Shown here: positions 23,752-57,090 of the stretch, piece by piece | Layout: the number at the start of each line of letters is the position of its first letter | Position numbering within the stretch: position 1 is the stretch's first letter | DNA from: a virus | Lineage: Duplodnaviria > Heunggongvirae > Uroviricota > Caudoviricetes | Reading direction: 5' to 3' (one strand) | Length of the DNA stretch: 64,000 bases | Virus record (IMG/VR): IMGVR_UViG_2703718815_000003 | The notes under the pieces: generated by a model | Database searches by the model: none | What the model was told of the DNA's origin: nothing | Seen by the model: only the letters and a program-made list of their open reading frames with translations | Translations under genes and position numbers: made by a program

Positions 23752-24642
23752 TTATGCCGGTAAAGCAATTTCTAACGGTTTATCCAAAGGTTGTTTGTCG
23801 AATGCCAGCAGTGGCAACGTGTCAGGCAGTCGACGGCCAAAGTCAGGGTTTCGGTACACACCATACAACGGAGACGTAAAGCTCAGGTTGTGAATGTCCT
23901 TGAGCAGCTTCACAATGCTGGCCTCGTCCACCAGACTGTCGGCAATGTCCTGAATCGTCGTGCCACGATTCCGCCCAGCTTTTGCCAGGGAACTGTTCTT
24001 GTGGTAGTCCGCCACCAGATCACGCAGTGCACGGCGACGACGAGACTCGCTCATTGCGAACAACTCTTTGACGATCGCCTCGTTATCACCCGGGTCGGAA
24101 CGGAAATGGCGCTGGAATACACGCAGTGCACTTTCATAGCTCTTCGGTCGCTCAGGGCGGATGAACTTAAACCCTGCTTTCATGGCGAAGGGATTGTATT
24201 TGCTCATCGAGGACTGGATCTCAATGATTGGCCGGTCATGCATCCTGCTAACCAGGTTAATCATTCGATAAGAGACGCCTACGCCACGATACTGAGTATC
24301 CACAACTGAGCGACTGATCACCGCAAAGTTGTTATTCACGTACCGACCCCAGTACTGGTTAGCCACGGTGGTATTAGTGGTTGGTTTCAACTTAGGAAAC
24401 ATGCGGTGGCGAGGTGCCAGCAGTAGTTTCGGGTAAGCCATAACCACGACGCCCACCAGACGGTCATCAAGTTCGCAGCGATAGTAAGTTGGCGCGAAAG
24501 GTTTGCCGTCTGTTTTGTAGTGAAGCGACTTAAGAGCGTACCAGTCCTCTACAGTTCCCTTTGTGACAGTCATTCGCTCCAGAAAGTCCAGATGACGCGG
24601 AAACTCTTCAGGGCGGTAGCGTTTAATGATGATGTCCGTCAT
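23752..24642 (-). CDS. GNAT-family acetyltransferase-like protein with N- and C-terminal extensions
   Basis: Motif VVDTQYRGVGVSYRMINLV resembles the GNAT acetyl-CoA motif (Q/R-x-x-G-x-G/A); start overlaps ATPase stop. Confidence 0.5.
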   Translation of the reverse strand: MTDIIIKRYRPEEFPRHLDFLERMTVTKGTVEDWYALKSLHYKTDGKPFAPTYYRCELDDRLVGVVVMAYPKLLLAPRHRMFPKLKPTTNTTVANQYWGRYVNNNFAVISRSVVDTQYRGVGVSYRMINLVSRMHDRPIIEIQSSMSKYNPFAMKAGFKFIRPERPKSYESALRVFQRHFRSDPGDNEAIVKELFAMSESRRRRALRDLVADYHKNSSLAKAGRNRGTTIQDIADSLVDEASIVKLLKDIHNLSFTSPLYGVYRNPDFGRRLPDTLPLLAFDKQPLDKPLEIALPA

Positions 24643-25304
24643 GAATGGACCTCATCATGACTACCATTGTGATATTCCACCTTCACGCGTTCTTTGTAGT
24701 GCTTGGTGATCTGCATATCCGGGCGCAGCGCGTTCTTCAGGTCTTCGTGAGTCGTCGCCACCATTACCGTCGCACCAACCTTTCGAGCGGCACGCTGGAG
24801 GTTAGATGCCACAACCTGAGCGGTTACACGGTCGAGAACAGCGCCGAACTCGTCAGCAGCCCACACTTTAGCGCCTGACTCAATCAGTTTGGCAATCTTG
24901 AGACGATATTTCTGACCGTCTGACATTTCAGAAGGCTTGCGAACAAACAGATATGCATCGTTCAGACCAGCCATAGATAACAACCCAAGCGCATCACTGG
25001 TAGTTTTGCCCAGTTGGTCAATGACGTTAACCTCATTATCGAAGGTAAAATCATCGATGGAGGCCACAGATAGCCCTTCATCCTTCATCTGGTGTTGCAG
25101 CTCGCGCAGCACAACGGATTTGCCGGAACCGGATTGGCCGGTAATGTACACCACATCGCCCTGCTTCACTTCCAGCTCCAGATTGTCGTAAAGCGTCCAC
25201 TCTTTTTCGTCCAGGCCAAGCCCGAACGACTCAGCGATTTCCAACGTGCGCGTGGTTTTATTTACGCGTGTCTGAAACGATACGTTGATGATGTATTTGC
25301 TCAT
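24639..25304 (-). CDS. ABC-type P-loop ATPase (stand-alone nucleotide-binding domain)
   Basis: Walker A GQSGSGKS, signature-like SDGQKYRL, Walker B VWAADEFGAVLD; 221 aa with no transmembrane partner nearby. Confidence 0.6.
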   Translation of the reverse strand: MSKYIINVSFQTRVNKTTRTLEIAESFGLGLDEKEWTLYDNLELEVKQGDVVYITGQSGSGKSVVLRELQHQMKDEGLSVASIDDFTFDNEVNVIDQLGKTTSDALGLLSMAGLNDAYLFVRKPSEMSDGQKYRLKIAKLIESGAKVWAADEFGAVLDRVTAQVVASNLQRAARKVGATVMVATTHEDLKNALRPDMQITKHYKERVKVEYHNGSHDEVHS

Positions 25305-25969
25305 GCAGCCATCTCCCCGGAAGAGATCTTCTCCGCATATGCCACAAATGCGTCTACCCCGCTTTCTCCCGTCATTTCTTCCATGTGGGCAAGCAAATCA
25401 CCAACAACAATGGCAGAGCCAGCAGGGAGCGTTTTAAAGCCCAATACGTCGACAACACGTACTTCTTCCGCTGCAACTTCACGACTGATCTCGGTGTGTT
25501 CATCCTTCTGTCGTTTAGTTTCTTCGCCAAGATCGATAACTAGCGAGTCGGTGTCCATTTCTTCTGTCATGCTGCCAACGAGAACATTCAACTCACGCTC
25601 TTCAAAGCCGAAAACCTCGATATCGTCCAGAACAAGCGACTCAAGCTCTTTCTGTAGCTTAATTGCATCGTAATCAATGCTGGCAAGTCGGTTATCTTCA
25701 AGGCGCTTCGCACGAATCTCGTCATCACTGAGATCATCGCGAACAATAACCGGTACGCGCTCAAGTCCAGCAAAAATTGCAGCCTCACGGCGGCCGTGGC
25801 CAGTAATAATTACGTCGTTCTTATCGACCGTAATTGGCTGGTCAAATCCGCGCTTTTTAATGGCTGCGGCTAGATCTCGGATCTGCTGTTCATCATGCTT
25901 TTTGGCATTCATCTCATAGGGAATAAGATCTGCCGGGTCGCGATATACGATTTCAAACTTTTTGGTCAT
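25301..25969 (-). CDS. ParB/Srx-fold (ParB N-terminal domain) protein 1
   Basis: GHGRREAA matches ParB box II (GERRxRA); start ATG 25967-25969 overlaps upstream stop (TAATG). Confidence 0.7.
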   Translation of the reverse strand: MTKKFEIVYRDPADLIPYEMNAKKHDEQQIRDLAAAIKKRGFDQPITVDKNDVIITGHGRREAAIFAGLERVPVIVRDDLSDDEIRAKRLEDNRLASIDYDAIKLQKELESLVLDDIEVFGFEERELNVLVGSMTEEMDTDSLVIDLGEETKRQKDEHTEISREVAAEEVRVVDVLGFKTLPAGSAIVVGDLLAHMEEMTGESGVDAFVAYAEKISSGEMAA

Positions 25970-26649
25970 TACATACGCTCCTTGTAGTAGTCGACCAGCC
26001 ACACCAGAGCCTCACCAGCGTTCTCCATTTCATTACCGGTGTTAATAGCCTGCTCTTTGATGATGTTTTTTATGGTTTCTGCAACGCGATCTGACGCATC
26101 GAAAGTTACTTTGAAGCGCATGGTCTGATGTTCCGCCCCCACACGTTCGGTTTTCTCTCGTTTGTCGGTATCGACAGGCTCATCACTACCACGAGACAAC
26201 GCCTCCAGTGCTTCAAGGTCGATTGCCGCCTCTTTTGCTATAACCATCGAGATTTCGTCGTCATACGGGGCGATTTCAGACAGTTGATAGTCAAGTTCTG
26301 ACTGAATTTCTTCAATGAAGCGTTGCAATGCGATTTGGTCGTCTTCACCGTATCGCTCGTTGTCCACCAGTGACATCTGTTTAGCTACGACATCGCTAAT
26401 TTTGCCCACAGAAAGCACTGGAACCGTTGAAATTCCTTGCTCAATAGCGGCACGCCAGCGATGTTCGCCGCCGAGGATTTCAAAAAATCCATCTTCAAGT
26501 TCACGAGCCAAAATTGGCTTAAAAAAGCCCAATTTTTCGATAGAACCTTTCAGTTTTTCAAAATTCTGCGCACCAACCGAATTGGTGTTCCAGGTATTCG
26601 GGCGAAGGTTGGCAACATCAACCTGCAAAATCGTGATTTTTACATCCAT
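25969..26649 (-). CDS. ParB/Srx-fold (ParB N-terminal domain) protein 2
   Basis: LGGEHRWRAA matches ParB box II; first ATG at 26647-26649 (track start is GTG). Confidence 0.7.
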   Translation of the reverse strand: MDVKITILQVDVANLRPNTWNTNSVGAQNFEKLKGSIEKLGFFKPILARELEDGFFEILGGEHRWRAAIEQGISTVPVLSVGKISDVVAKQMSLVDNERYGEDDQIALQRFIEEIQSELDYQLSEIAPYDDEISMVIAKEAAIDLEALEALSRGSDEPVDTDKREKTERVGAEHQTMRFKVTFDASDRVAETIKNIIKEQAINTGNEMENAGEALVWLVDYYKERM

Positions 26650-26666
26650 TTTATTGCTACAATCCA

Positions 26667-26694
26667 CTAAGTAATCACTTACTTACTATAATAG
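26667..26694. promoter_or_regulatory. palindromic TAAGTA...TACTTA motif in divergent promoter region
   Basis: ctaagtaatcacttacttactataatag between the divergent ParB operon and helicase gene. Confidence 0.4.
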
Positions 26695-29838: not shown

Positions 29839-30453
29839 TTGGATTATCATGATATGAAAATGAAACTTTCGTTACTCCTTGCTTGTATATACCTCCCGGC
29901 GTTTTCCGCCAACGCATTATCAGATTTCGTCTATGACATGCAAAAAACGTACAGCATGTTTACCTCCGAAGACGTAGTAGAATACAAATCACGAGGTCTG
30001 AATCAGCCAGTTTGGTTCAGATTCTCAGACAACGCAGAAGAAACAATACTTAATGGAGGAAAAGAAAGATTACGGTTGCAAATTAACGGGACCGCTGTAC
30101 CAGAAAACGTTAATGTAAGCTCTGACGAAGCCATGAAGCCATCTGGAATTGTTTTAGAAGTTCAAGACGGCACACTTTACTGTGATGAAATGGCTACAAC
30201 AGGTTGCCAAGTAAACATTAGGGTTGGCAATGAAGAGCCTATCGTTACTTACGCCAAGGCTGAAGGGAATACAAGTGGAAAGGTATTGTTTATCGATGAA
30301 AATATCTCAAAACGTATCGTTCGTGACATACAGAAAACAGCTAACTCTAAATCCGTCGATAAAAAAATCTATGTTGAGGTTCCCTTCTTTGTCGTTGGTA
30401 ACAAAGAATTTAAATTTGGGTTGCTGAAAACACCTCTAAGAGTATCAGAATGA
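29839..30453 (+). CDS. predicted secreted protein
   Basis: N-terminal signal-peptide-like MKMKLSLLLACIYLPAFSANA; exact start uncertain (ATGs at 29839, 29854, 29860). Confidence 0.5.
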   Translation: MDYHDMKMKLSLLLACIYLPAFSANALSDFVYDMQKTYSMFTSEDVVEYKSRGLNQPVWFRFSDNAEETILNGGKERLRLQINGTAVPENVNVSSDEAMKPSGIVLEVQDGTLYCDEMATTGCQVNIRVGNEEPIVTYAKAEGNTSGKVLFIDENISKRIVRDIQKTANSKSVDKKIYVEVPFFVVGNKEFKFGLLKTPLRVSE

Positions 30454-30974
30454 GAACATTGGACATCACCTACGGCATACCGGCTGAAGTCTGGCCGCGA
30501 GACTACGAACATGCTGAGAACATACTTATGTTCTGGCGGAAGAACAACATTCCTGTAAGAGTCACGCTTGAAGACGGTCAGGTGTTTTGCATGTACGTTC
30601 AGGGGACAATGCCTTCACGCAATAAGCTAGATTTATGCCCGATTCCATATGATAAAGAAAATCGTATAAGACTCCCACTTGAGCGCATTAGCACAATTGA
30701 ATCAGGTGTAATCGATGGCATTGCTCGCGAGTTCAAAGGTAGGCTAACAATACATCCAGACTATGTTGACAATCAGCCATCACGCCGTGACTTTTTTGCG
30801 ATATGTCGCAAGGCTTATCAAAACGACCAATCTATAAGGGTCTACATGACAGACGGTCGTGAAATAGAAGGGGTGTCAAGAGGCGTTGATGCTTGCCAGG
30901 TCACTCTTAAGTTAGAAGACGGCAGAAAAATACTTGTTTTCTTCGATTGGGTTGAACGAATCCTTCCATTTTAA
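30450..30974 (+). CDS. hypothetical protein
   Basis: 174-aa ORF overlapping previous stop. Confidence 0.5.
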   Translation: MRTLDITYGIPAEVWPRDYEHAENILMFWRKNNIPVRVTLEDGQVFCMYVQGTMPSRNKLDLCPIPYDKENRIRLPLERISTIESGVIDGIAREFKGRLTIHPDYVDNQPSRRDFFAICRKAYQNDQSIRVYMTDGREIEGVSRGVDACQVTLKLEDGRKILVFFDWVERILPF

Positions 30975-38677: not shown

Positions 38678-40711
38678 TTACTTAACTTGGTGGCCTGGTT
38701 TAGCACCAGCATCCGGGCTTAACAGGAAGATATCTTTTCCGCCAGGGCCAGCAGCCATCACCATGCCTTCGGAGATACCGAAGCGCATTTTACGCGGTGC
38801 CAGGTTAGCCACCATAATGGTGTGACGACCAATCAGTGCCTGTGGGTCTGGATAAGCAGAACGGATGCCTGAGAAGACATTGCGTTTTTCACCGCCGAGA
38901 TCCAGCGTCAGGCGCAGCAGTTTGTCAGAACCTTCAACAAACTCTGCGTTTTCGATCAGTGCCACGCGCAGGTCAACTTTGGCAAAGTCGTCAAAGGTGA
39001 TGGTTTCCTGAATCGGGTCGTCTGCCAGCGGGCCAGTAACTGGCGCGGCAGCTGCTTTCACTTCTTCTTTGGATGCTTCCACCAGTGCTTCAACCTGCTT
39101 CATATCGATGCGGTTATACAGTGCCTTGAACGGATTCACTTTATGGCCCAGCAGCGGTTGCTGGATACCATCCCAGGTCAGTTCTGTATTCAGGAATGCT
39201 TCTGCACGTTCAGTCAGTTTCGGCAGTACCGGCTTCAGGTACGTCATCAGCACGCGGAACAGGTTAATGCCCATAGAGCAAATCGCCTGCAGATCGGCAT
39301 CGCGTCCTTCCTGCTTCGCCACCACCCACGGAGCCTGTTCATCGACATAGCGGTTAGCCAGGTCAGCCAATGCCATGATTTCACGGATAGCTTTACCAAA
39401 TTCACGGCTTTCCCATGCTTCGCCAATCACTTCAGCGGCATCAGTAAAGGTTTTGTACAGTTGCGGGTCAGCCAGTTCGCTTGCCAGCACGCCGTCAAAA
39501 CGCTTGTTGATAAAGCCTGCATTACGGGAGGCCAGGTTAACCACTTTGTTCACGATATCGGCATTCACGCGCTGAACGAAATCCTCCAGGTTGAGATCGA
39601 TATCATCAATGCGCGAAGAGAGTTTCGCAGTGTAGTAGTAACGCAGGCTGTCAGCGTCAAAATGATTCAGCCAGGTGCTGGCTTTAATAAAGGTGCCGCG
39701 AGACTTGGACATCTTCGCGCCGTTCACCGTCACATAGCCGTGAACAAACAGGTTGGTCGGCTTGCGGAAGTTGCTGCCTTCCAGCATGGCAGGCCAGAAC
39801 AGGCTGTGGAAGTAAACAATATCTTTACCGATGAAGTGGTACAGCTCGGCGGTGGAGTCTTTCTTCCAGTATTCATCGAAGCTGGTGGTATCGCCGCGCT
39901 TGTCGCACAGATTCTTGAAGGAACCCATGTAGCCAATCGGCGCGTCCAGCCAGACGTAGAAATATTTGCCCGGCGCGTTCGGAATTTCAAAACCGAAGTA
40001 GGGCGCATCTCGGGAGATATCCCACTGTTGCAGGCCGGATTCAAACCATTCCTGCATTTTGTTCGCCACCTGCTCCTGCAACGCGCCGCTGCGGGTCCAT
40101 GCCTGCAACATTTCGCTGAAAGAAGGCAGATCAAAGAAGAAGTGTTCGGAATCACGCATTACCGGGGTAGCGCCAGAAACCACCGATTTCGGCTCGATCA
40201 ATTCAGTCGGGCTATATGTTGCGCCGCAGACTTCACAGTTATCGCCGTATTGATCTGGCGCTTTACATTTCGGGCAGGTGCCTTTTACAAAACGATCCGG
40301 CAGGAACATGCCTTTTTCCGGGTCGTACAACTGAGAGATAGTGCGGTTTTTAATAAAACCGTTCTCTTTCAGGCGAGTATAGATAAGCTCAGACAACTGA
40401 CGGTTCTCTTCGCTGTGCGTCGAGTGATAGTTGTCATAGCTGATGTTAAAGCCTGCGAAATCAGTCTGGTGTTCCTGACTCATTTCGCCAATCATCTGCT
40501 CCGGTGTGATACCAAGCTGCTGTGCTTTCAGCATGATCGGCGTACCGTGGGCATCGTCGGCACAGATGAAATTAACCTCGTGGCCGCGCATTCGCTGGTA
40601 ACGAACCCAGACATCAGCCTGGATGTGCTCCAGCATATGGCCGAGGTGGATTGAGCCGTTAGCGTACGGCAGCGCGCACGTCACCAGAATTTTCTTCGCG
40701 ACTTGGGTCAT
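38678..40711 (-). CDS. metG: methionyl-tRNA synthetase (host-type MetG)
   Basis: 677 aa from [26 protein letters not shown]; class I motifs SIHLGH and KMSKS, CPKC/CEVC zinc knuckle, C-terminal tRNA-binding domain. Matches enterobacterial MetG as I recall it, not verified by search. Confidence 0.95.
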
Positions 40712-40868
40712 AGTAGGCATTACTTCTTTGTAGTGAAAAGGGGCTTGATAGTAACAAAATGGCCTTATGTCTGCCATGTGATAACAGCATTTCTCATAAA
40801 TGATTAAATGTCGTAGCTGGAGTACACTACAAGGCGACAATTGCGCAAATTAAAATAAAGGAGACGGG

Positions 40869-46942: not shown

Positions 46943-47080
46943 GTGTTTTTCTCTTCTTTGCTGTTACATAAGCACTACCAAGTGCTGGTTTATTTTCACA
47001 AATAAGAAAAGGTAGAAAACAATTTATTTAAGGCCATAAGTTATGGCCTTTATTTATTCATGCAGAAGGATTTGTAGCGC

Positions 47081-47461
47081 CTAATTGCCGGATAAAATGG
47101 GTTGAGGTGCTTGCCAGTAAGCTCCACCGTCCCATGTGAACCCCATGCGAATAAGAGTGTTTATTGCGGCTTTGGTAGACTCTGATTCGACACTGACTTT
47201 TCGAAACTCTTGAACCTCTTTCGCCAACCTGTATGTAATTGTGCAGGGGACGATTGCAGCCCAGCCTTTCTCATGACTGTTAATGACCATCTGGATGTGA
47301 CCATCCAGAATAGGTTGATTAGGCATGTTATTGAAAATGTCTGCCTGTTTTTGAATGTGAAGAAAAAGCCTTGCCAGTGCCATTTGCTCACTACGAGACA
47401 AGGGATTATCAAGAGGACTTTTTGCAAAAGCGGCTATACGCTGTGCATCAATGCCAAACAT
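47081..47461 (-). CDS. hypothetical protein
   Basis: 126-aa ORF. Confidence 0.45.
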   Translation of the reverse strand: MFGIDAQRIAAFAKSPLDNPLSRSEQMALARLFLHIQKQADIFNNMPNQPILDGHIQMVINSHEKGWAAIVPCTITYRLAKEVQEFRKVSVESESTKAAINTLIRMGFTWDGGAYWQAPQPILSGN

Positions 47462-48165
47462 CAGCGCACCTCACCATCTTTATGGCTGGAGTTAACTTCC
47501 GCCATTAAATGTCTGACGTAATCGACAAGAGAGCCACCTGGTGGAATCTGGCATTCCTCAACTAACTGGAAGTAGATATCCGCTGCATTACGTGTATTAC
47601 TACCCTCGCATATTCTTTCTTCCCGAAGTGCATGAAGCTCGCTGATCAAACGGTCACACTCTCCGTTACGCTGATCCACAACGGCCTCAAGCTCTGCGAC
47701 GCGTTCACCTGGCGTCTTACCTTCTTTGCGTTGGATGGTAACGACGAAATCGCCAATTGCAGGGACGTTGTAATCCAGCTCAAGGTAGTTTTTGGCACCG
47801 CTGCGGACGAACTCACCCGCGAACATGGTGGCGAACATCGCAGAGGCCACTTCGCCGTTGAAAAGTGACTCCAGATCTAACGGAGTCCCGGCAGCAAGAG
47901 CCTCTTTTGCTGTATCCATTGCATCCATGAACCGATCAAACTCACTAGCGCGCTTTTCCAGGTCTTTCCATTGCTCGCTCCAACGTTTGGCAACGAAGTC
48001 TATGAATGTTTTCGCGGATTCATCAAAATTCCCCTCAAACTTAACGATGCCTTTATCAATAATGATCTGGCCTACCGCATCCTCTGCATAACCTTTCAAT
48101 GTAAACTTGAAAGGAAAATCAGAATGGCCTGTGACGTTAAAATGCTCTAACTGGAGGTTGTTCAT
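47461..48165 (-). CDS. hypothetical protein
   Basis: 234-aa ORF. Confidence 0.5.
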   Translation of the reverse strand: MNNLQLEHFNVTGHSDFPFKFTLKGYAEDAVGQIIIDKGIVKFEGNFDESAKTFIDFVAKRWSEQWKDLEKRASEFDRFMDAMDTAKEALAAGTPLDLESLFNGEVASAMFATMFAGEFVRSGAKNYLELDYNVPAIGDFVVTIQRKEGKTPGERVAELEAVVDQRNGECDRLISELHALREERICEGSNTRNAADIYFQLVEECQIPPGGSLVDYVRHLMAEVNSSHKDGEVR

Positions 48166-48226
48166 GTGTTTTTCTCTTATCGTTTAGTTACTACATTCTT
48201 ACACAAATTAAGTAAGTATTTACCTA

Positions 48227-49912
48227 TCATTTAACGCATTTGAAAACGTATACGCTGACTGTGATCCCTGTGTCTTCAAACTCGTTGGTAAACGACTTCC
48301 CTCTGGCATAAACGTAATTATCCATCGTCATCCAGTCCAGTATTGGCGCAGTGCCCGGCAATACTGCTACAAGACGCCCGCCGACTTTCAGATGCCCCAG
48401 CGCAGCCAGCGTGTGCTCTCTATGACGACCAAGCGAGTACGGCGGGTTCATAACGATTTTGTCGAACTGATAACCTGCGTTGTCCTCAGACCACTTTATG
48501 AAGTCGCAGCAAATCGTGTTCGTATACCCTTTTCCAAGCAGGATATCAGCGAAGAGAGGTGCGATTTCTATGCAGGTAACATCTTCCAGATCGGCGTTAA
48601 TATAGGCCAGAAGATCCCCACGTCCGGCTTGAGGCTCCAGCAGCTTCTCACCAGGCTTCAATTCAGTGGCTCTGGCAACGTACTCAGCAATCAAGCGTGG
48701 GGTAGGGTAGAACTGGTGTGATTTTGTATCCGGTATTAAACCGGTAGCCACAATCGTATTTAGCGTATGGCCGATGTCATACGGGAACTGCCAGTGCTTT
48801 TTCTCCTGCACGCCGCCAATGAAGCTCAGTGTGCGCTCAAGCTCTTCCACCTGCGACTTCTGGAGAGCTGAATCAGAGAAGTACCATACGCCTTTGTCTT
48901 TGCTCAATCGCCCGTCACGAAGCGCAGTGCGAACCGGCACGGAGATCGTCTTCTGGATTAACCCGAACTGCTTTGGTGCCCGTGTTTTTGGCGCAGTTCG
49001 GCATGGCGCGGGGATTGCAGCAGGCATACTGTAAGCCAGCACCTCATTCAACTTCCAGGCCACGTCAGGATGTATTTCAAAGTGAACGTTGCCGTTCTTG
49101 AACATCTTCACGCGCATCAGATTTCCATCGACGTTCATCCAGTCACCGGTCTGGCAGTCGTTTGCTCGATACGCAGCTGATAGCACCTCAGCAGTGCGGT
49201 TGATGGTAATAAATTCTTTGTGCGCGAAGAAATGAAGCAAGACACGCAGATCGTCGATGTAGTCCTCTTTGCGATAGTTCACGCTAACGCTGTCCCGCCA
49301 GAAATCAGAAATGCAGTCAGCGATTATCAGACGCTCGCTGAAACCGTTTGTCTTATTTGTCTTGTGCGCAGGACTCAGCGCCTTAAACAAGCCATACACG
49401 CGCTCAGAGAGATATTTGTGCCTGTCATTCAGCAAATTAAGCATCGTGGGTATGACCGTTTCTGCTTTGAACTCCGGTACACCAACGAACTCTTTAACCT
49501 TCATCTGGTAGCCGGTTCTGTCAGTTTTGATGACTTCCTGTTTGCCCTCTATAAACTGCTCGCGCCACTCATCTCGACGGGAAGCTGGCATGATCAGCAA
49601 AACGTTAGTCATGTCCGTGACCTTCCTCCAGTACTCGGCCCAAATATTCTGTTTCACCCATTCCAGATCGACTTTATCCAACCAACCTCGATTTAAACGC
49701 GAGCGATCTTCATCTGGTCGATGGTTTAGTCTCAGCAGGCGATTAATCATGTTGTGGCGTTCGTCGCCATAAACGAAGTCGTGAACCTGATACATGAAGG
49801 CGATCTCTTTCTCGCACTCGGCCACAATTTCGTGGATGACGTTCATTTCCTGCCGATAGTCGATAGCAGTGTTTGAGTTGGCATCGTCGATGATGGAAAG
49901 GGCTGTATTCAT
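48227..49912 (-). CDS. DNA methyltransferase (N6A/N4C type) with large N-terminal domain
   Basis: C-terminal AdoMet motif LEPQAGRGDL followed by catalytic MNPPYS. Confidence 0.65.
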   Translation of the reverse strand: MNTALSIIDDANSNTAIDYRQEMNVIHEIVAECEKEIAFMYQVHDFVYGDERHNMINRLLRLNHRPDEDRSRLNRGWLDKVDLEWVKQNIWAEYWRKVTDMTNVLLIMPASRRDEWREQFIEGKQEVIKTDRTGYQMKVKEFVGVPEFKAETVIPTMLNLLNDRHKYLSERVYGLFKALSPAHKTNKTNGFSERLIIADCISDFWRDSVSVNYRKEDYIDDLRVLLHFFAHKEFITINRTAEVLSAAYRANDCQTGDWMNVDGNLMRVKMFKNGNVHFEIHPDVAWKLNEVLAYSMPAAIPAPCRTAPKTRAPKQFGLIQKTISVPVRTALRDGRLSKDKGVWYFSDSALQKSQVEELERTLSFIGGVQEKKHWQFPYDIGHTLNTIVATGLIPDTKSHQFYPTPRLIAEYVARATELKPGEKLLEPQAGRGDLLAYINADLEDVTCIEIAPLFADILLGKGYTNTICCDFIKWSEDNAGYQFDKIVMNPPYSLGRHREHTLAALGHLKVGGRLVAVLPGTAPILDWMTMDNYVYARGKSFTNEFEDTGITVSVYVFKCVK

Positions 49913-50015
49913 AATTGCACCATTAAGAAGTGATTTGTTTAATGGTGCAATTATTTCAAAAATGAAAAGGTACTAAATAGAAATAAACAGGCAATCCTTC
50001 AAATAAAGGCATTGG

Positions 50016-50687
50016 CTAATCATACTTGGAGGTATTTATCACCAGAATTTTGTTTGTATAAATCTTCTTAATATCCCATGTGACATTACCGGAATACCAT
50101 TGACCGTTATATACTTGGTTTCCAGTTGCACCTGTCATTGTTACATAGACAGGTCTGTCGTAATCGGTTCGTCTATAGTTATATACTCCAACCATAGCAG
50201 GCATTACCGCACATGGATACCCCATATCTATTGTAAATTGAGGGTCAGAAATAGTGATAAGTTTCGCATCAAGGGGCATCATCTCACCGTGATACACCAT
50301 TGCGCCTGCGCTGTTATACATGGCAATGCCATAGCCAGAATGTGGTAACACCATATCAGAAAAAGCATAAACTGTTATTGTTCCGGGGCTACCATTTACC
50401 TGATGCAATCTGAGAGCATTGTATCCGTTACTATGCTCATGAATAAACATCATGTTCGCCTTATTACTGCTTTTTATGAAAAAAAAACATGATTTGTTTG
50501 ATGGGATTGATGTTTGAAAAACAGAACCTTTAGATGTAGACATTGTCCCTTTATTAATCAGATTTTGCGGAGTAAATTCTGGACTCATCCACAAACTTCC
50601 ATCTGATTGAGTAATTGACATCCCGAACATAATTATCCCCAGTATGTGTATATGTAAGAACCAAGCCCCGTATATAAATTTGACCAA
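50016..50687 (-). CDS. hypothetical protein (low-GC cargo); possibly one disrupted gene with 50633-50914
   Basis: Two ORFs overlap by about 55 nt in different frames. Confidence 0.35.
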   Translation of the reverse strand: MVKFIYGAWFLHIHILGIIMFGMSITQSDGSLWMSPEFTPQNLINKGTMSTSKGSVFQTSIPSNKSCFFFIKSSNKANMMFIHEHSNGYNALRLHQVNGSPGTITVYAFSDMVLPHSGYGIAMYNSAGAMVYHGEMMPLDAKLITISDPQFTIDMGYPCAVMPAMVGVYNYRRTDYDRPVYVTMTGATGNQVYNGQWYSGNVTWDIKKIYTNKILVINTSKYD

Positions 50688-50914
50688 CTAACCGTATTTC
50701 CATTAATAGTAACATTTGGAACAGGTAAATTGATGTAGTTGTCGTTGTTAAGAGGCATTAATGACCACACGGCATGTAGTGATTTACCCGGTGGCGGATT
50801 AGAGTACGTCTTAGAGCCTGATGACGCCGTAAATCGATCAAGAAAAAAAATAGGTGTAAGGAAGCCAGTAACGTTAATTCCTTTATTGTTGTAAATCCCT
50901 GTACCGTATGACAT
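50633..50914 (-). CDS. hypothetical protein / N-terminal fragment
   Basis: 93-aa ORF overlapping 50016-50687. Confidence 0.3.
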   Translation of the reverse strand: MSYGTGIYNNKGINVTGFLTPIFFLDRFTASSGSKTYSNPPPGKSLHAVWSLMPLNNDNYINLPVPNVTINGNTVSWSNLYTGLGSYIYTYWG

Positions 50915-50968
50915 TTTTCACCCTTGTTTTTATCAACACAATATGGCCGATCATGCGGCCATATCAGA

Positions 50969-51538
50969 TCAATTAGAGCTTTGAAAGACTTTGTGTGGTT
51001 GTGTTGCGAGGTTATGTCGATGGCTTAACTCACGCATCATGTCTTCAAGCCGACTCTTTGTGTCGTCGAGTTGGTCGGCCATTGCTCCCAAAAGCTGACG
51101 AACGGCCATCGGATCATCGCTGTTTAGTGATGGCATTTTATAACCCGCCTGAGAAGACATAAGATTGAACGCAGACATCAACATCGTTAGAGAGGATTTA
51201 AGCCCAGCAATTTCACGATCTTTGCTGGCAATAATCGCCTCACTCTTGTTAGTGTCATCAGTTCGTTGAGTCTCGCTCACCATATCCAAAGTCGCCTGCA
51301 ACTTATCAGCGCGCTCTTTTTCAGCAAGATAATGAACACCGAAATGATGTGCTAAAGCTACAACCTGAGTTGGCTCTTCAAAGGTGGACTCAAAATTAAG
51401 TGCTGTAACCACTCTCTCAAATATGGAAACGTCTTCTATTCCTCGAAGAATGGCTAACATTTTGACCAGTTCATTAGCATCCATTTCTTCGAATAAGGCG
51501 TTTTGTTCATCAGCTATCGCTTTGCATTTCTTGCACAT
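50969..51538 (-). CDS. hypothetical protein
   Basis: 189 aa; early motif gccaataagaaaacaacttgtttaagc upstream. Confidence 0.5.
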   Translation of the reverse strand: MCKKCKAIADEQNALFEEMDANELVKMLAILRGIEDVSIFERVVTALNFESTFEEPTQVVALAHHFGVHYLAEKERADKLQATLDMVSETQRTDDTNKSEAIIASKDREIAGLKSSLTMLMSAFNLMSSQAGYKMPSLNSDDPMAVRQLLGAMADQLDDTKSRLEDMMRELSHRHNLATQPHKVFQSSN

Positions 51539-51677
51539 GTGTTTTTCCTAATGCTTAAACAAGTTGTTTTCTTATTGGCTTTATTGTGATGTGGCATAAA
51601 AGGGGAGCAAGCTAAACGTAAAGGTGCAAACTCTCTATTTCGGTCAACGAAACACAAGGGCCATTTGGCCCTTGTCA

Positions 51678-51836
51678 TTAACACGTTGCTTTACGGACTA
51701 GCGGATAAGCGAAGTAGATCGCCAGACCAATGAGGACGCCATCAGAAATGACAGACATCATCTTTCCCGTAAAATCCACCAACACCGCCATCACCAGAAG
51801 AGCAATGACGATCACAAGCCGGAATCTCTCAAGCAT
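51678..51836 (-). CDS. small membrane protein (52 aa)
   Basis: Hand translation MLERFRLVIVIALLVMAVLVDFTGKMMSVISDGVLIGLAIYFAYPLVRKATC; below ORF-track threshold. Confidence 0.3.
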   Translation of the reverse strand: MLERFRLVIVIALLVMAVLVDFTGKMMSVISDGVLIGLAIYFAYPLVRKATC

Positions 51837-52261
51837 TAGAGATAAGCATCCAGTGACAACTGAAGCGCCTGGGCGATCTTTTTCAGTGCCTGCTCTTCTT
51901 GTTCACCAATGCCGTCCTGATCGGCAATATCAAGGCACAGACACAGAACATCGACCGCCTCTGGAGTACCCGCAATATCAGACAGCTCACGAATAGCCTG
52001 TGCATTAGCAGAACGAGGGGACGCTTCGTAACGAGCACGGATATTGGCGCTCATTTGGGCAATTTCACCAGCAAACGGAGAAAACGCAGGCAGAGCTGCA
52101 ATTGTCTTCTCAAGAATGGCAATTTCTTTTGCGTCACATGTGCCGTCGGCATAGGAGATCATGTACGCGCCCCACACGGTGGCCTCAACCGCATCACGGT
52201 TCTCCATTTTTTTGACTTCGATAACAGCTTTACGAGTTTTCTTTTTGAAGAAACCTAACAT
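51836..52261 (-). CDS. hypothetical protein
   Basis: 141 aa; early motif upstream. Confidence 0.5.
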   Translation of the reverse strand: MLGFFKKKTRKAVIEVKKMENRDAVEATVWGAYMISYADGTCDAKEIAILEKTIAALPAFSPFAGEIAQMSANIRARYEASPRSANAQAIRELSDIAGTPEAVDVLCLCLDIADQDGIGEQEEQALKKIAQALQLSLDAYL

Positions 52262-52354
52262 GTGCTTTCCTTTTATTATTTGTCAAAACAAGTTGTTTTC
52301 TAATTACATAAATTGCTTACGCAGAGATGGTCAATGCATATGCACTAACAGCCG

Positions 52355-52543
52355 TCAGAAATAACCAAGTACCGAACCAACTGGAAAAACAAAAATCCCA
52401 ACTACACGAGCCAAGGTCATGCCAGCCTGAAACTGGAGATCGCCAGAGCAAACAAGTTTTATAATGTTCGATACCCAACCGGCGGCCATAAGGGCAAGAA
52501 TTGCCAGCCAAATTTTTCCAAAGTGATTTGAAAACCAGTTCAT
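52355..52543 (-). CDS. small membrane protein
   Basis: 62 aa with two hydrophobic segments. Confidence 0.4.
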   Translation of the reverse strand: MNWFSNHFGKIWLAILALMAAGWVSNIIKLVCSGDLQFQAGMTLARVVGIFVFPVGSVLGYF

Positions 52544-52552
52544 ACAACCGCC

Positions 52553-53047
52553 TTAGTCACAGCATGATCCTGAGTAACTGGATGAACTTGAGGTATCGCA
52601 TCCACCGCCATCCCATCCAGAGTGACAGGACGCTCCACTGGAGTGGTGGTAATTGTCGTCGACGAAGGTGTGGTGATGGATGAATCCGGCATCAAAAGGC
52701 TCTGACCGGCTGGAACGGCTACCGTCGCCAGTGAAACTATAATGAGAACGTAGGCCATTGGTTTCAGCCTCTTTCTTTGAAAATTTTCCATTCGAACTGT
52801 CCTTGTTGTTTTTCTCCTTCACTAAAGGCCGTGCATTTTTCGCTTCGCGTGAAGAGCCAGAGGCAACAATCGCCCCCACGTTCGCAACAACTGACGCTTG
52901 ATTATCTAAACGTTCATTCAGCAACCGAACGGTAGTCTCTAGTTCTTCAAGGCGTGACATAACACGACCGCTAAATAATTCGGCCAAAATTTGACGTAAA
53001 GAACGAGGGCGTTTAGTTACAGAAGTGAAATAGGTTTGACGTGCCAT
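52553..53047 (-). CDS. hypothetical protein; C-terminal half low-complexity, alternative embedded ORF 52540-52791
   Basis: N-terminal coiled coil; second half Ser/Gly/His-rich; embedded out-of-frame ORF has a hydrophobic N-terminus. Confidence 0.35.
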   Translation of the reverse strand: MARQTYFTSVTKRPRSLRQILAELFSGRVMSRLEELETTVRLLNERLDNQASVVANVGAIVASGSSREAKNARPLVKEKNNKDSSNGKFSKKEAETNGLRSHYSFTGDGSRSSRSEPFDAGFIHHHTFVDDNYHHSSGASCHSGWDGGGCDTSSSSSYSGSCCD

Positions 53048-53195
53048 GTGGACTCCATCCAGTGTCAGAAAGAGTTGCGGCTGGCGATTGCCAGCCGCCT
53101 TTCTCGTTCCATCCTGGAACTGTGTCTTACCGACACATTGTCATCCTGACGCCGATAAGATACATGATTTAAAATGATAGGTAAACACTTACTTA

Positions 53196-53786
53196 CTATT
53201 TATTATAAACAAAACCAATATCTTTCTTGTGAGGCATATCTGCTGCTGAAAAAGCTGCGATCTTCGCGAGTCGATCACATATTTCATTTTCACGATGCCC
53301 GGCGTGACCTTTAACCCACTTCCAGCGAACATTATGTCGACTTGCGGCCTCATCCAGACGCTTCCACAGATCAACATTCTTTACCGGTTTTTTGTCAGAA
53401 GTCATCCATCCATTGCGTTTCCACCATTTCATCCACTGTGTCATGCCGTTTTTCAGATACTGGCTATCAGAGTGCAAAATAACGTTGCATGGATATTTCA
53501 AACGCTCCAGCCCGATAAGTGCCCCCATCATCTCCATGCGGTTATTGGTGGTGCTATGAAAACCATCTGAGAACTCGCGTTCCTCACCACGATACTGGAG
53601 AACTATACCGTAACCGCCCGGGCCACCCGGATTTTTAAGGCAAGAGCCATCACTGAAGATTTTCACGGTTTTAAGCTGGGGATTGAACTCTACGACAGGC
53701 GTTGTGGAATTGGTGCGGGGAGAATTTTTGTTTTTGGCTTTTTTGCGAGTTTTTTCTTGCGATCGGGCTGGTGTCTTCGTCGTCAT
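53196..53786 (-). CDS. rnhA: ribonuclease H (RnhA-like)
   Basis: RNase H1-like motifs [37 protein letters not shown]; start ATG 53786 with AGGAG. Confidence 0.8.
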
Positions 53787-53879
53787 ATAAACTCCTGAAT
53801 CAAGCGCCGCGCCGATTTTTTTTCCTCGCGCGTGCGCACACGCGTGCGTGTTAATAATTATTAAAATAAACAAATTACT

Positions 53880-54370
53880 TCCCAGAACAGGTTTTTATAA
53901 ACCTGAACTGAACGAACGAAGTGAGTGAAGTTCACCTCGAACGAAGTGAGAGGTTGTCTTTTCAGGTAATACTCTCCCAGGGAGGTGAGTATAAAAATCC
54001 CTCACCAACCTGGTCGTTTCATAACCTGAAAAGTTATGGTCTAAGTCTACTGCCAGCTTAGACTTGGGAAGTTATGGATGACAGCACCCCAGAACCGAGA
54101 TCTTCCCACACTTTATGAAGGGGAGTACTGGATTCAACCTCTCGAAACACCCCAGACTCGACAATCATAAAGTGACCCTTGTCTCCGCTCACTTTGGTTC
54201 CCCCTTCCCCGACACCTAAACGGCACCAGTTCTACGCTGGTAGTGAGCTTTTTTAAACCTGACGCCAGTGACGCTTACCCCCACCCATCAGGTCGAGTCT
54301 CCAGTCTACGACTGGAAACTATCAGATCTTAGCACTTACAATTCACTTTATGAATAGTTTGTACTTATCT
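53880..54370. other. about 500-bp non-coding region with direct repeats and hairpins
   Basis: cgaacgaagtgag x2, aagttatgg x2, hairpin ctaagtctactgccagcttagacttgg; no convincing ORF. Confidence 0.4.
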
Positions 54371-54371
54371 A

Positions 54372-54602
54372 TCATTGTGATTGATTATTTTCTCTACCAT
54401 GTAGTTGAACATTCAAGGCAAACACCTCATTGATCAACTCACCTAAAAGCTGTTCAACAAGTTCGCGATGCTCGCCAAGATGCAAGCACTTAATTGCCCA
54501 TTCGTACAAGTTGAAAGCCTGCTCACGATCTTTCATCATTTCACGAGCCTGGGCCAGAAAATCGCTCTCTACGAGCGCAACGACATTAGTCGGGTATGAC
54601 AT
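54372..54602 (-). CDS. hypothetical small protein
   Basis: Start ATG 54602 with AAGGA upstream. Confidence 0.45.
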   Translation of the reverse strand: MSYPTNVVALVESDFLAQAREMMKDREQAFNLYEWAIKCLHLGEHRELVEQLLGELINEVFALNVQLHGRENNQSQ

Positions 54603-54683
54603 GTTGGTTTCCTTAAAGTGGTTCATAAAATCGATTTTAAAGCGTCTGGGAAGGGGTTCTAGTGGATTCTGTAGTGATGTTCA

Positions 54684-54775
54684 GGTCTGGAGTCTCTGAT
54701 ACAAAACAGCCTGCTTCCGTATATTAATAATTAATATGTAGTTATTTATATATACAGAAGCAGGCTAATTACAGA
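54684..54775. repeat. second copy of the imperfect inverted repeat seen at 23375-23473
   Basis: Shares ggtctgg...agcctgcttccgtatat...atatatacagaagcagg. Confidence 0.5.
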
Positions 54776-54787
54776 CGCCAGAACAAA

Positions 54788-55381
54788 CTAAGCAGCCTTC
54801 TTTGATGGTCTTTTTTTCCTGATCACATTCGCAGGATCATACCCTCCCAGACTTTTCATGACGTCCAAAGGGATCTTGCTTATAGAGTGCCCAGCGTCCT
54901 GACAGAATCCTCGAAAAACAACGAGCATACTGCCACCTGGGTTGATGTTTACTTCTACCTGACCCAGATTGACGTCAGGCTCGACAAACGCTACGCGGCC
55001 ACCAGACAGAATAATCGTCTCATTCGCACACTCTGTTGCACGCTCATACCACTTTGTATCTAGGGATTGAGGAATTAGCATCACTGTTGTAACTCCGCGA
55101 GCCTGCTCACGTATAGCCGCATCAATCCAGGGGGAGATTTTGGAGTAGGGTGGATTGAGGAAGGCAATTGTACCTGGCTGTCCCCATTCAGATTTCAAAG
55201 CATCACGCTCAACGCCTATGAAATTAGGCAGCTTTGCATTGTCCTTGTTGCAGGCAACGTCAACATCAAATGTCACTCCAAGATAACGTTGAATGGCAGA
55301 AAACAGCCAGTCAGGTGTTCTCCAGAGGTCACGAAGAGAGTTGTCGCGCTTTCGCTGTTTGATTTTTTCGGCTGCAATCAT
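54788..55381 (-). CDS. phage-type N6-adenine DNA methyltransferase (Dam-like)
   Basis: WRTPDWLF N-terminus and FLNPPYS catalytic motif. Confidence 0.8.
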   Translation of the reverse strand: MIAAEKIKQRKRDNSLRDLWRTPDWLFSAIQRYLGVTFDVDVACNKDNAKLPNFIGVERDALKSEWGQPGTIAFLNPPYSKISPWIDAAIREQARGVTTVMLIPQSLDTKWYERATECANETIILSGGRVAFVEPDVNLGQVEVNINPGGSMLVVFRGFCQDAGHSISKIPLDVMKSLGGYDPANVIRKKRPSKKAA

Positions 55382-55564
55382 CTTCTTTCTCGATAGGTAA
55401 GTAAATACCTATTTTTGCATTTGATTTTATGTCTGGCAATCAAATAAAACGCGCCAGAAATGCAAACGAGAAGCTCTCTGGCGCGTTTTTGTGGTGCTGG
55501 GTATGTGATTGGCTTACCCAGCACTATAAAGCTCTCTATGGGCTTTATTTTCAGTAGGGGAACG

Positions 55565-56374
55565 TCATCCAATAGTGTACTCCGCGACAAACTTCTTAAC
55601 GATCGGTGATTCTTCGTTCAATGTTAGATTTCCACCGTCTCTAACGGCAATTCCTGTCGCTGGAAATACAGCCATCATTTGCCCAGCCTGAGTTGACGCA
55701 GTGTTAAGCGGATACGGTTTTTCTGGATTGCTCATTAAAGCAATCTTAATACTATTACTTGTAGCCTTCTTTTCTGTGAGAAGGTGTCTCATGGAAATTA
55801 CCGTGTAAACACTAATATCTGGACCTCCGCTAAACCAATTAAGAAGGTTTAATATCTTATCCTTTGCTTTGACAGGCGCGTTATCGTAAGCGTCTAAAAA
55901 AATATCTTTCTCTAAACCCGCTTTATTGAAAAACGCATCATCTTTATCACTTAGAGCAAAACGAGGACCTCTTGCAGTACGCGCTTTTTTATTTGTGTTG
56001 CTATCATTTGACTGTTGAACTTTTAATTCATCATTAATCTCAACACACCCTTCAACCTCGATGATCCCCAACTGTTCTGGTTCGTTTTCGGCAGCTTCAC
56101 CACTTTCAGCGTTAATTACGTTTATAGGCTCATGCGCTAACTCCAACTCATTTAAAGCTGAGCTGAAATCACCTGCTTTTTCTTCATTGAACAGTTCTTC
56201 GGCAACATCATCAGAACTCATGGCTACGCCAGCATCTAGGCCGAGCAGCAGATCGTCAATATCATCAGTATTTTCAACCTGTGCAGCTTTTTTTACTGGT
56301 TCATCAAGTGATTGCAACATGGCTGCCAGCTCGTCCAGATCATCATTTGTCATTACATTTTCAACCGAACTCAT
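55565..56374 (-). CDS. hypothetical acidic protein
   Basis: 269 aa, very acidic N-terminal half; AGGAG RBS. Confidence 0.5.
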   Translation of the reverse strand: MSSVENVMTNDDLDELAAMLQSLDEPVKKAAQVENTDDIDDLLLGLDAGVAMSSDDVAEELFNEEKAGDFSSALNELELAHEPINVINAESGEAAENEPEQLGIIEVEGCVEINDELKVQQSNDSNTNKKARTARGPRFALSDKDDAFFNKAGLEKDIFLDAYDNAPVKAKDKILNLLNWFSGGPDISVYTVISMRHLLTEKKATSNSIKIALMSNPEKPYPLNTASTQAGQMMAVFPATGIAVRDGGNLTLNEESPIVKKFVAEYTIG

Positions 56375-56532
56375 GTAAGTCTCCTTCTGTTTGGTTACAT
56401 TTGCGTTTCGATGGCTACATTTTGACTAAACCTATCAGGCGGAAAAGTATTAAATACAGGCAGGAAATGATTGAAAGGCGACTGTTCTTTAAAAGAAAGC
56501 CTACTTTAAACTTTTTAAAGTAGGCTTTTGTT

Positions 56533-57090
56533 TTACACAATTTCAGAGGGTAATTTAAAAAATCCGTACTTATTACGTGCCTTAAAGAAGCATTGCATCA
56601 TTAAGTTTGTGTCATATAAGGCACTATGTGCTTTGGCATGATCGTATATAAAGCCAAGAGAGAAGGCCAACTCTTCAAGGCGGGGACGTTTACCGTCTTC
56701 TGTGGCCCACAATCCCGATAACATAGTATCTATAACAGGAACTTCTGGCAGTCTTACTCCATACCCTGAAAACTCGTGTCGAATAAATGGTATATCAAAT
56801 GCTTCGCCGTTATGAGCAACCCACACACTACATGCCCCCATATAAGCGCCAATTTCGCTGGCATGATTTGACAACAAAGGTTCAGCTGCGAGCTGTTCCA
56901 ATGAAATGCCATGAACGGCTTGAGCTTTCGGATCTATGTTTCTGCGAGGGTTAAAACGCATCTCCAGACTATCAATATGTCTCTGTGTCTCCAGTTCATA
57001 GCGGGTAATTGCGATTTCAATAATTTTATGACCAGCAAGGAAATCCAGTCCCGTAGACTCGATATCGATGCCTGCAACAATCGTTGTCAT
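56533..57090 (-). CDS. DnaQ-like 3'-5' exonuclease (DEDDh)
   Basis: Exo I DIESTG, Exo II HNGEAFD, Exo III H....YD. Confidence 0.75.
   Translation of the reverse strand: MTTIVAGIDIESTGLDFLAGHKIIEIAITRYELETQRHIDSLEMRFNPRRNIDPKAQAVHGISLEQLAAEPLLSNHASEIGAYMGACSVWVAHNGEAFDIPFIRHEFSGYGVRLPEVPVIDTMLSGLWATEDGKRPRLEELAFSLGFIYDHAKAHSALYDTNLMMQCFFKARNKYGFFKLPSEIV

Follow-up and report, generated by a model that had tools for sequence, protein, structure and literature searches.

Two orphan N6-adenine methyltransferase genes in an SSU5-like viral sequence, one of them fused to a constrained DUF4942 module

Why should a mobile element carry two DNA methyltransferase genes and no restriction enzyme to match either of them? 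The question is raised by a stretch of 64,000 nucleotides of Caudoviricetes DNA (IMG/VR record IMGVR_UViG_2703718815_000003; the whole stretch is hereafter termed the window), in which a first-pass annotation had recognized a 561-amino-acid (aa) enzyme with an NPPY motif and a smaller "Dam-like" enzyme, both lacking a cognate restriction gene. The two open reading frames (ORFs) proved exact as given there, namely 48227-49912 (561 aa) and 54788-55381 (197 aa), both intact and on the minus strand, and their products are adenine methyltransferases as judged from sequence and fold. We conclude that both genes encode orphan N6-adenine DNA methyltransferases, and this claim is much more secure than the proposal that they were selected for anti-restriction. 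Both genes are already known, being annotated in near-identical public genomes (99-100% identity) and catalogued in PHROG, Pfam, and NCBIfam. The two genes as such matter little, since few accessory genes are more common in phages and plasmids than orphan methyltransferases; some upside lies only in what the DUF4942 module of the larger enzyme does, as this module is under strong constraint and its carriers are clinically relevant.

Identity of the two enzymes

The smaller gene (54788-55381, minus strand) coincides with the coding sequence CYRAN_79 of Escherichia phage Cyrano, labelled "Adenine methyltransferase." Its product exceeded the curated cutoffs of both Pfam PF05869 (Dam; 131.8 bits against 28.1) and TIGR01712 ("phage N-6-adenine-methyltransferase"; 113.9 bits against 97.05), matched phrog_111, and bears NPPY at aa 76-79 (nucleotides 55145-55156). 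Relatives of this enzyme are carried in 1979 phage records. SSU5_088, the ortholog in Salmonella phage SSU5, is 86% identical, while the identity outside SSU5-like elements was about 30-40%, the nearest enzymes being those of Stx/lambdoid and Vibrio phages (~40%). We regard the 197-aa protein as an unexceptional phage T1-type enzyme; this family comprises T1 Dam and the enzymes of Stx/lambdoid prophages, and the shared properties are the passing of both curated cutoffs, the NPPY motif, the orphan status, and the phage-borne gene, with 39% identity to the Stx- and lambda-like enzymes. This PF05869 family is distinct from the family of Escherichia coli Dam (PF02086). The term "Dam-like" is thus apt for the former family but not for the latter, and implies no GATC specificity. 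The target of T1 Dam is GATC.

The larger gene (48227-49912, minus strand; stop codon at 48227-48229) coincides with CYRAN_90 of Cyrano, labelled "DUF4942 domain-containing protein." Its product matched phrog_6263 ("DNA methyltransferase") over the full length with an E value of 1.8e-298, and is 99% identical to a RefSeq cluster of 1384 sequences. A poorly conserved, helical N-terminal region (aa 1-85; 49658-49912, minus strand), with 12% identity to distant homologs and predicted local distance difference test (pLDDT) values below 50 at aa 1-17 and 69-74, is followed by a conserved core including Pfam DUF4942 (aa 86-310; 48983-49657, minus strand). A small, variable alpha/beta linker domain (aa 311-395; 48728-48982, minus strand), about 29% identical to distant homologs, then precedes a compact catalytic domain of the gamma-type N6-adenine methyltransferases (aa 396-561; 48230-48727, minus strand). 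The motifs of the catalytic domain stand in the gamma order X-I-IV, namely FYPTP at aa 401-405, LEPQAGRGD at aa 425-433, and the NPPY already noticed in the first-pass annotation at aa 489-492 (48437-48448), and are invariant or nearly so across 28 homologs. Besides aa 1-85 and 311-395, a segment around aa 521-540 is variable.

No Pfam methyltransferase model exceeded its threshold in the 561-aa protein, N6_Mtase (PF02384), for which the cutoff is 20.4 bits, scoring only 13.3 (E 0.051). When E values up to 0.1 were admitted for the homologs, N6_Mtase was found in 24 of 28 (best E 7.9e-6) and MTS in 18 of 28. Among the PADLOC models, the catalytic domain matched mad2 best (E 2e-15), along with several Type II methyltransferase models. 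A phmmer comparison with M.TaqI gave a weak match that was not significant (E 0.11), with motif I and NPPY in register. The predicted structure shows a class I Rossmann methyltransferase fold close to those of TaqI-type enzymes. The gamma-class enzymes M.TaqI, M.BseCI, and CamA carry a C-terminal target-recognition domain, whereas the 561-aa protein ends only about 70 aa past NPPY and therefore has no room for such a domain; its extra module, the 395-aa DUF4942 region, lies at the N-terminus and has an unrelated fold that found no match, and the protein's sequence similarity to gamma-class DNA enzymes lies below the Pfam thresholds. We assign the protein to the DUF4942 family and phrog_6263, and propose that it works like a gamma-class adenine methyltransferase, presumably with DNA as the substrate.

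Kinship of the 561-aa enzyme to M.EcoGIX and M.BceJIII was considered and rejected. The latter are beta-class, single-strand-specific orphan methyltransferases of the plasmid leading region with a DPPY motif (PMC7736820), in contrast to the gamma order and NPPY of the window enzyme. What they share with the window enzymes is that they are adenine methyltransferases encoded on mobile elements as orphans, with a proposed or demonstrated role in guarding incoming DNA from restriction, but there is no homology in motif order or domain content. M.EcoGII was set aside likewise, as it too belongs to the beta class.

Absence of a restriction partner

The absence of a cognate restriction gene, as claimed in the first-pass annotation, held at each level at which an adjacent endonuclease was sought by homology. 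None of the proteins neighboring the two genes matched a nuclease or restriction model in PADLOC, Pfam, or NCBIfam, no restriction enzyme was found in a scan of the 76 non-overlapping ORFs of at least 80 aa in the window, and none is listed in the complete annotation of Cyrano (a 108-kb reference genome). Three matches that could have suggested otherwise were rejected: that to "Type IV REase" was due to the helicase C-domain of a UvsW-like helicase, that to "MTase_II" to two ParB_N proteins, and that to mad3/mad8 to a P-loop. Beside the homologs of the 561-aa gene in five other contexts (among them prophages and an IncHI2 plasmid), there was neither a conserved partner gene nor an endonuclease. 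Missing profile matches are no proof of absence, as restriction enzymes diverge fast, but the lack of a conserved partner across unrelated contexts points in the same direction.

The DUF4942 module

The N-terminal domain of some 380 aa to which the first-pass annotation could give no function corresponds to the region of Pfam DUF4942 (PF13708), matched at aa 140-295 with 74 bits against a gathering threshold of 25; all of the 28 aligned homologs match as well. Structure prediction and fold searches assigned neither a known fold nor a function to it. For the N-terminal ~385 aa, no structural match of known function was obtained, the search of BFVD giving uncharacterized proteins only, and a profile search of the PDB sequences with this region found nothing. 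Neither a nuclease fold nor a nuclease motif was found in it. In the literature searched, there was no experimental target, specificity, or role for the conserved N-terminal module of the family.

A profile of the N-terminal region retrieved 1511 clusters (50% identity), 417 of them below an E value of 1e-30 and almost all 510-580 aa long, and 137 of the 149 best N-domain relatives contained an (N/S)PP(F/Y/W) motif. As the N-domain relatives are mostly full-length and bear this motif, the fusion of DUF4942 and methyltransferase is the rule. The order of the two modules can also be reversed: in a 604-aa protein encoded on a plasmid of Tunicatimonas pelagia (NZ_CP120684.1; 1711-3525 of our locus L011), a related methyltransferase domain (38% identity, E 2e-15) occupies aa 60-197, ahead of DUF4942 (E 1.7e-32) at aa 352-556, and phrog_32703 has the same methyltransferase-then-DUF4942 arrangement. 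Given both module orders and the fusion as the rule, we regard DUF4942 as a dedicated partner of this methyltransferase clade. In the permuted relatives, DUF4942 appears to take the place of the recognition domain of the classical gamma enzymes, and the most likely role of the module is to bind DNA or the target. The permuted gene of Tunicatimonas is adjoined by PRTRC-system and DUF3560 genes.

The DUF4942 core is the most constrained part of the gene. In the comparison with the SSU5 ortholog, the ratio of nonsynonymous to synonymous substitution rates (dN/dS) was 0.039 for the core, 0.095 for the catalytic domain, and 0.087 for the whole gene, all indicating strong purifying selection. The identity to distant homologs was 40% for the core (aa 86-310) and 41% for the catalytic domain.

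Homologs in other mobile elements

DUF4942-methyltransferase homologs with 33-39% identity were found in the early regions of lambdoid prophages, beside repressor, replication, and recombination genes. Homologs with ~31% identity were present in roughly 1975 plasmid records; the plasmids among the matches listed were mostly 150-380 kb in size, and the one inspected was IncHI2A. PLSDB contained a homolog in 2821 plasmids, including IncHI2 resistance plasmids. Of 5426 complete E. coli genomes, 251 (about 4.6%) contained the 561-aa gene itself, and 247 of its 256 places were on plasmids. The members of the DUF4942 family, which are spread over phages, integrative and conjugative elements, and plasmids, possess the same two modules, and the window protein represents the branch of SSU5-type phage-plasmids, with the copies of IncHI2 plasmids and prophages being only 31-39% identical to it. 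The neighbors of the homologs differ entirely between contexts.

A second orphan methyltransferase gene was located 0-3 kb from the DUF4942-methyltransferase gene at four of the homologous loci (L005, L007, L008, and L010). The second enzyme belonged to PF01555 in two prophages, to PF00145 in one, and to PF02086 (the Dam family) in an IncHI2 plasmid and a 116-kb contig. This arrangement suggests small methyltransferase islands in mobile elements.

With its occurrence in ~4.6% of the complete E. coli genomes and in ~2800 PLSDB plasmids, and with the purifying selection on it, the DUF4942-methyltransferase family has a modest value for follow-up. If known, the target motif of the family would aid methylation-based linking of plasmids to hosts and help to predict which restriction barriers can be crossed by resistance-spreading elements.

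Possible functions of the methyltransferases

We propose that the two independent orphan enzymes, both forming N6-methyladenine, serve pre-emptive self-methylation against host restriction, with DUF4942 acting as the recognition module of the larger enzyme, and we favor this package as a whole with moderate confidence. Both genes lie in what appears to be the early DNA-metabolism block of the element and are probably expressed with the replication functions. If they are co-expressed with the genes for replication and nucleotide metabolism, the element's DNA would be methylated by its own two enzymes, and its plasmid copies as well as its packaged genomes could reach the next host already protected from restriction enzymes sharing the target sites. 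The compact catalytic domain of the 561-aa enzyme would depend on the DUF4942 module, and perhaps also on the variable subdomain of aa 311-395, for engaging DNA. Anti-restriction would then be the function under selection.

The proposal agrees with reports on orphan methyltransferases, which reportedly form a prominent anti-defense class in the leading regions of plasmids and have a demonstrated protective effect in phages (PMC11541004, PMC7736820). A further point in its favor is that catalytic domains related to that of the 561-aa enzyme occur in giant proteins and in a "DarB-like antirestriction" protein, the latter label being that of one tblastn match. The best PHROG relatives of the catalytic domain outside its own family lie inside giant proteins of phages and plasmids (1200-3900 aa), and in phrog_9133 the linker and methyltransferase domains co-occur (aa 328-558 of the query matching positions 660-903 of 1259). 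In contrast to the giant and DarB-like proteins, the 561-aa enzyme is free-standing, with no helicase or other effector domains, and is not known to be packaged in virions.

Several points weigh against self-protection. The literature searched, including the work on SSU5, pHCM2, phage-plasmids, and PF05869, gave no methylation data for either protein. GATC in the window is neither depleted nor clustered, with an observed-to-expected ratio of 0.86, a result that is uninformative as to whether the 197-aa enzyme methylates GATC. Dam methylation is already present in E. coli hosts, where little protection would be gained from an enzyme with GATC as its target. In some phage-plasmids, the 561-aa gene is reduced to fragments, and it is therefore dispensable. 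Finally, a recognition domain is expected to vary with specificity, but the DUF4942 core equals the catalytic domain in conservation and contains invariant His, Asp, and Asn residues. Such conservation fits a fixed target, non-specific binding, or a second activity. It is conceivable, albeit rather unlikely in our view, that DUF4942 is not a conventional variable recognition domain but a new, highly constrained module (e.g., a binder of fixed-structure or single-strand DNA, or a second catalytic site), which would define a large clade of adenine methyltransferases in temperate phages, phage-plasmids, and IncHI2 resistance plasmids and play a special role at the establishment in a new host.

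The alternative that survives best is that the methyltransferases serve the element's own life cycle, with methylation as an epigenetic cue to plasmid replication, to packaging, or to a switch between lysis and lysogeny or to late genes. Dam methylation is known to act as a signal at oriR and pac of P1 and at mom of Mu. The syntenic positions of both genes across the SSU5-like elements of Escherichia, Salmonella, and Klebsiella and the strong purifying selection are in line with such a role, and a single fixed target throughout the family is suggested by the invariance of the DUF4942 core. Nevertheless, no GATC cluster was found in the 64-kb window: the maximum was 5 sites per 200 bp, for which 0.65 windows are expected by chance, in a scan that covered the terminase end, repA lying outside the window. 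Furthermore, the 561-aa family is also present in unrelated lambdoid prophages and in IncHI2 plasmids, of which the replication and packaging systems are different, and truncated copies exist in some phage-plasmids. We thus regard an epigenetic role as possible but unlikely.

It is considerably harder to maintain that the 561-aa protein is not a DNA enzyme and methylates RNA (N6-methyladenine in rRNA or tRNA) or glutamine in protein, with the substrate bound by DUF4942. DNA enzymes scored almost as high (M.BseCI, 17.8; M.TaqI, 17.3; CamA, 16.6), N6_Mtase was the most frequent secondary Pfam match of the homologs, and every PADLOC match was to a DNA methyltransferase. In addition, the homologs repeatedly adjoin other DNA methyltransferases in the early regions of mobile elements. 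The motif X of the protein, FYPTP, resembles the (F/Y)xTP of gamma-class DNA enzymes. We consider action on RNA or protein improbable.

Self-methylation by orphan enzymes would also be wrong if the 561-aa protein were a fused restriction-modification enzyme of the Type IIG/IIL kind with an N-terminal nuclease. The sole prompt for this idea is the label "RE endonuclease" on gp121 of Pseudomonas phage Dolphis, a 562-aa homolog (2307-3995 of our locus L012). As no nuclease fold, be it PD-(D/E)xK or similar, and no nuclease motif was found in the family, we judge the label to be unsupported and likely a misannotation, and the fused enzyme to be very improbable. Equally far-fetched is the view that the methyltransferase is the modification part of an unrecognized multi-gene defense system akin to MADS: the best PADLOC match of the catalytic domain is indeed mad2 of MADS, and another window protein matches mad3 and mad8, but the latter matches cover a short P-loop (aa 29-85) in an ATPase encoded 23 kb away (24642-25304), no other mad components and no mad1-mad8 locus were found, and the gene neighbors differ completely between contexts.

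Genomic setting and other features of the window

The region 47000-57000 of the window, which contains both methyltransferase genes, shares 99.0% identity with Escherichia phage CMS-2020a and 98.3% with Cyrano. The identity was 83% to SSU5, with about half of the length covered, and about 78-81% to Klebsiella phage-plasmids. From this near-identity to Cyrano and CMS-2020a, together with the similarity to SSU5 and the Klebsiella phage-plasmids, we regard the window as part of an SSU5/pHCM2-type phage-plasmid. Nearly every gene in the 43-64 kb portion is on the minus strand, and the two methyltransferase genes are co-oriented with a block encoding ribonucleotide reductase, ThyX, DHFR, MazG, Pnkp, RNase H, and a DnaQ-like exonuclease. 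In SSU5 and the Klebsiella phage-plasmids, both genes are found at syntenic positions. The proteins encoded between and beside them are Ead/Ea22-like, Eaa-like, and TciA/TerB-like proteins, a JenP1-like pair of membrane proteins, and RNase HI, and further neighbors are small hypothetical proteins, a 269-aa acidic protein, and the DnaQ-like exonuclease.

The JenP1-like pair (50016-50914, minus strand) lies between the two methyltransferase genes. Its two ORFs show ~78-79% DNA identity to a gene pair of JenP1, JenP2, and BRET, which are unrelated phages of ~60 kb; the pair consists of phrog_425 ("membrane associated protein") and a 93-aa "outer membrane protein." The corresponding interval of SSU5 holds an antirepressor gene instead, and the pair looks like an exchanged moron cassette. 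The 269-aa protein (55565-56374, minus strand) is encoded directly upstream of the 197-aa methyltransferase gene, has a very acidic N-terminal half, and belongs to phrog_5235 (unknown function); it matched no family of Pfam, NCBIfam, or PADLOC. The hypothetical gene SSU5_087 occupies the equivalent position in SSU5.

Other genes of the window are located farther from the methyltransferases. A full methionyl-tRNA synthetase (MetRS) is encoded at 38681-40840 on the minus strand (Pfam tRNA-synt_1g, E 5e-166), and the MetRS label is also found in Cyrano. At 30450-30971 on the plus strand, there is a gene for a 174-aa protein with a full-length match to Pfam Flag1_repress (FljA, the repressor of phase-1 flagellin; E 9.1e-81). 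This gene sits in the patch of the lowest guanine-plus-cytosine (GC) content in the window (28-32 kb; GC 0.37-0.40). A repressor of flagellin expression borne on a phage-plasmid could alter the motility or antigenicity of the host.

Two adjacent genes on the minus strand (25304-26667 and 23755-25304) encode the ParB_N-domain proteins, of 233 and 232 aa, respectively. Both match only the N-terminal ~135 positions of the PADLOC model of Type II methyltransferases, which correspond to the ParB-like head of ParB-methyltransferase fusions. Two ATPase-like genes then follow the pair, one of them being that with the P-loop matches to mad3 and mad8 of MADS.

Regarding the composition of the window, CTAG is far scarcer than expected (24 observed against 77 expected; ratio, 0.31), while other 4-bp palindromes, GATC among them, are near expectation. 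We take this scarcity to be the usual avoidance of CTAG in enterobacteria.

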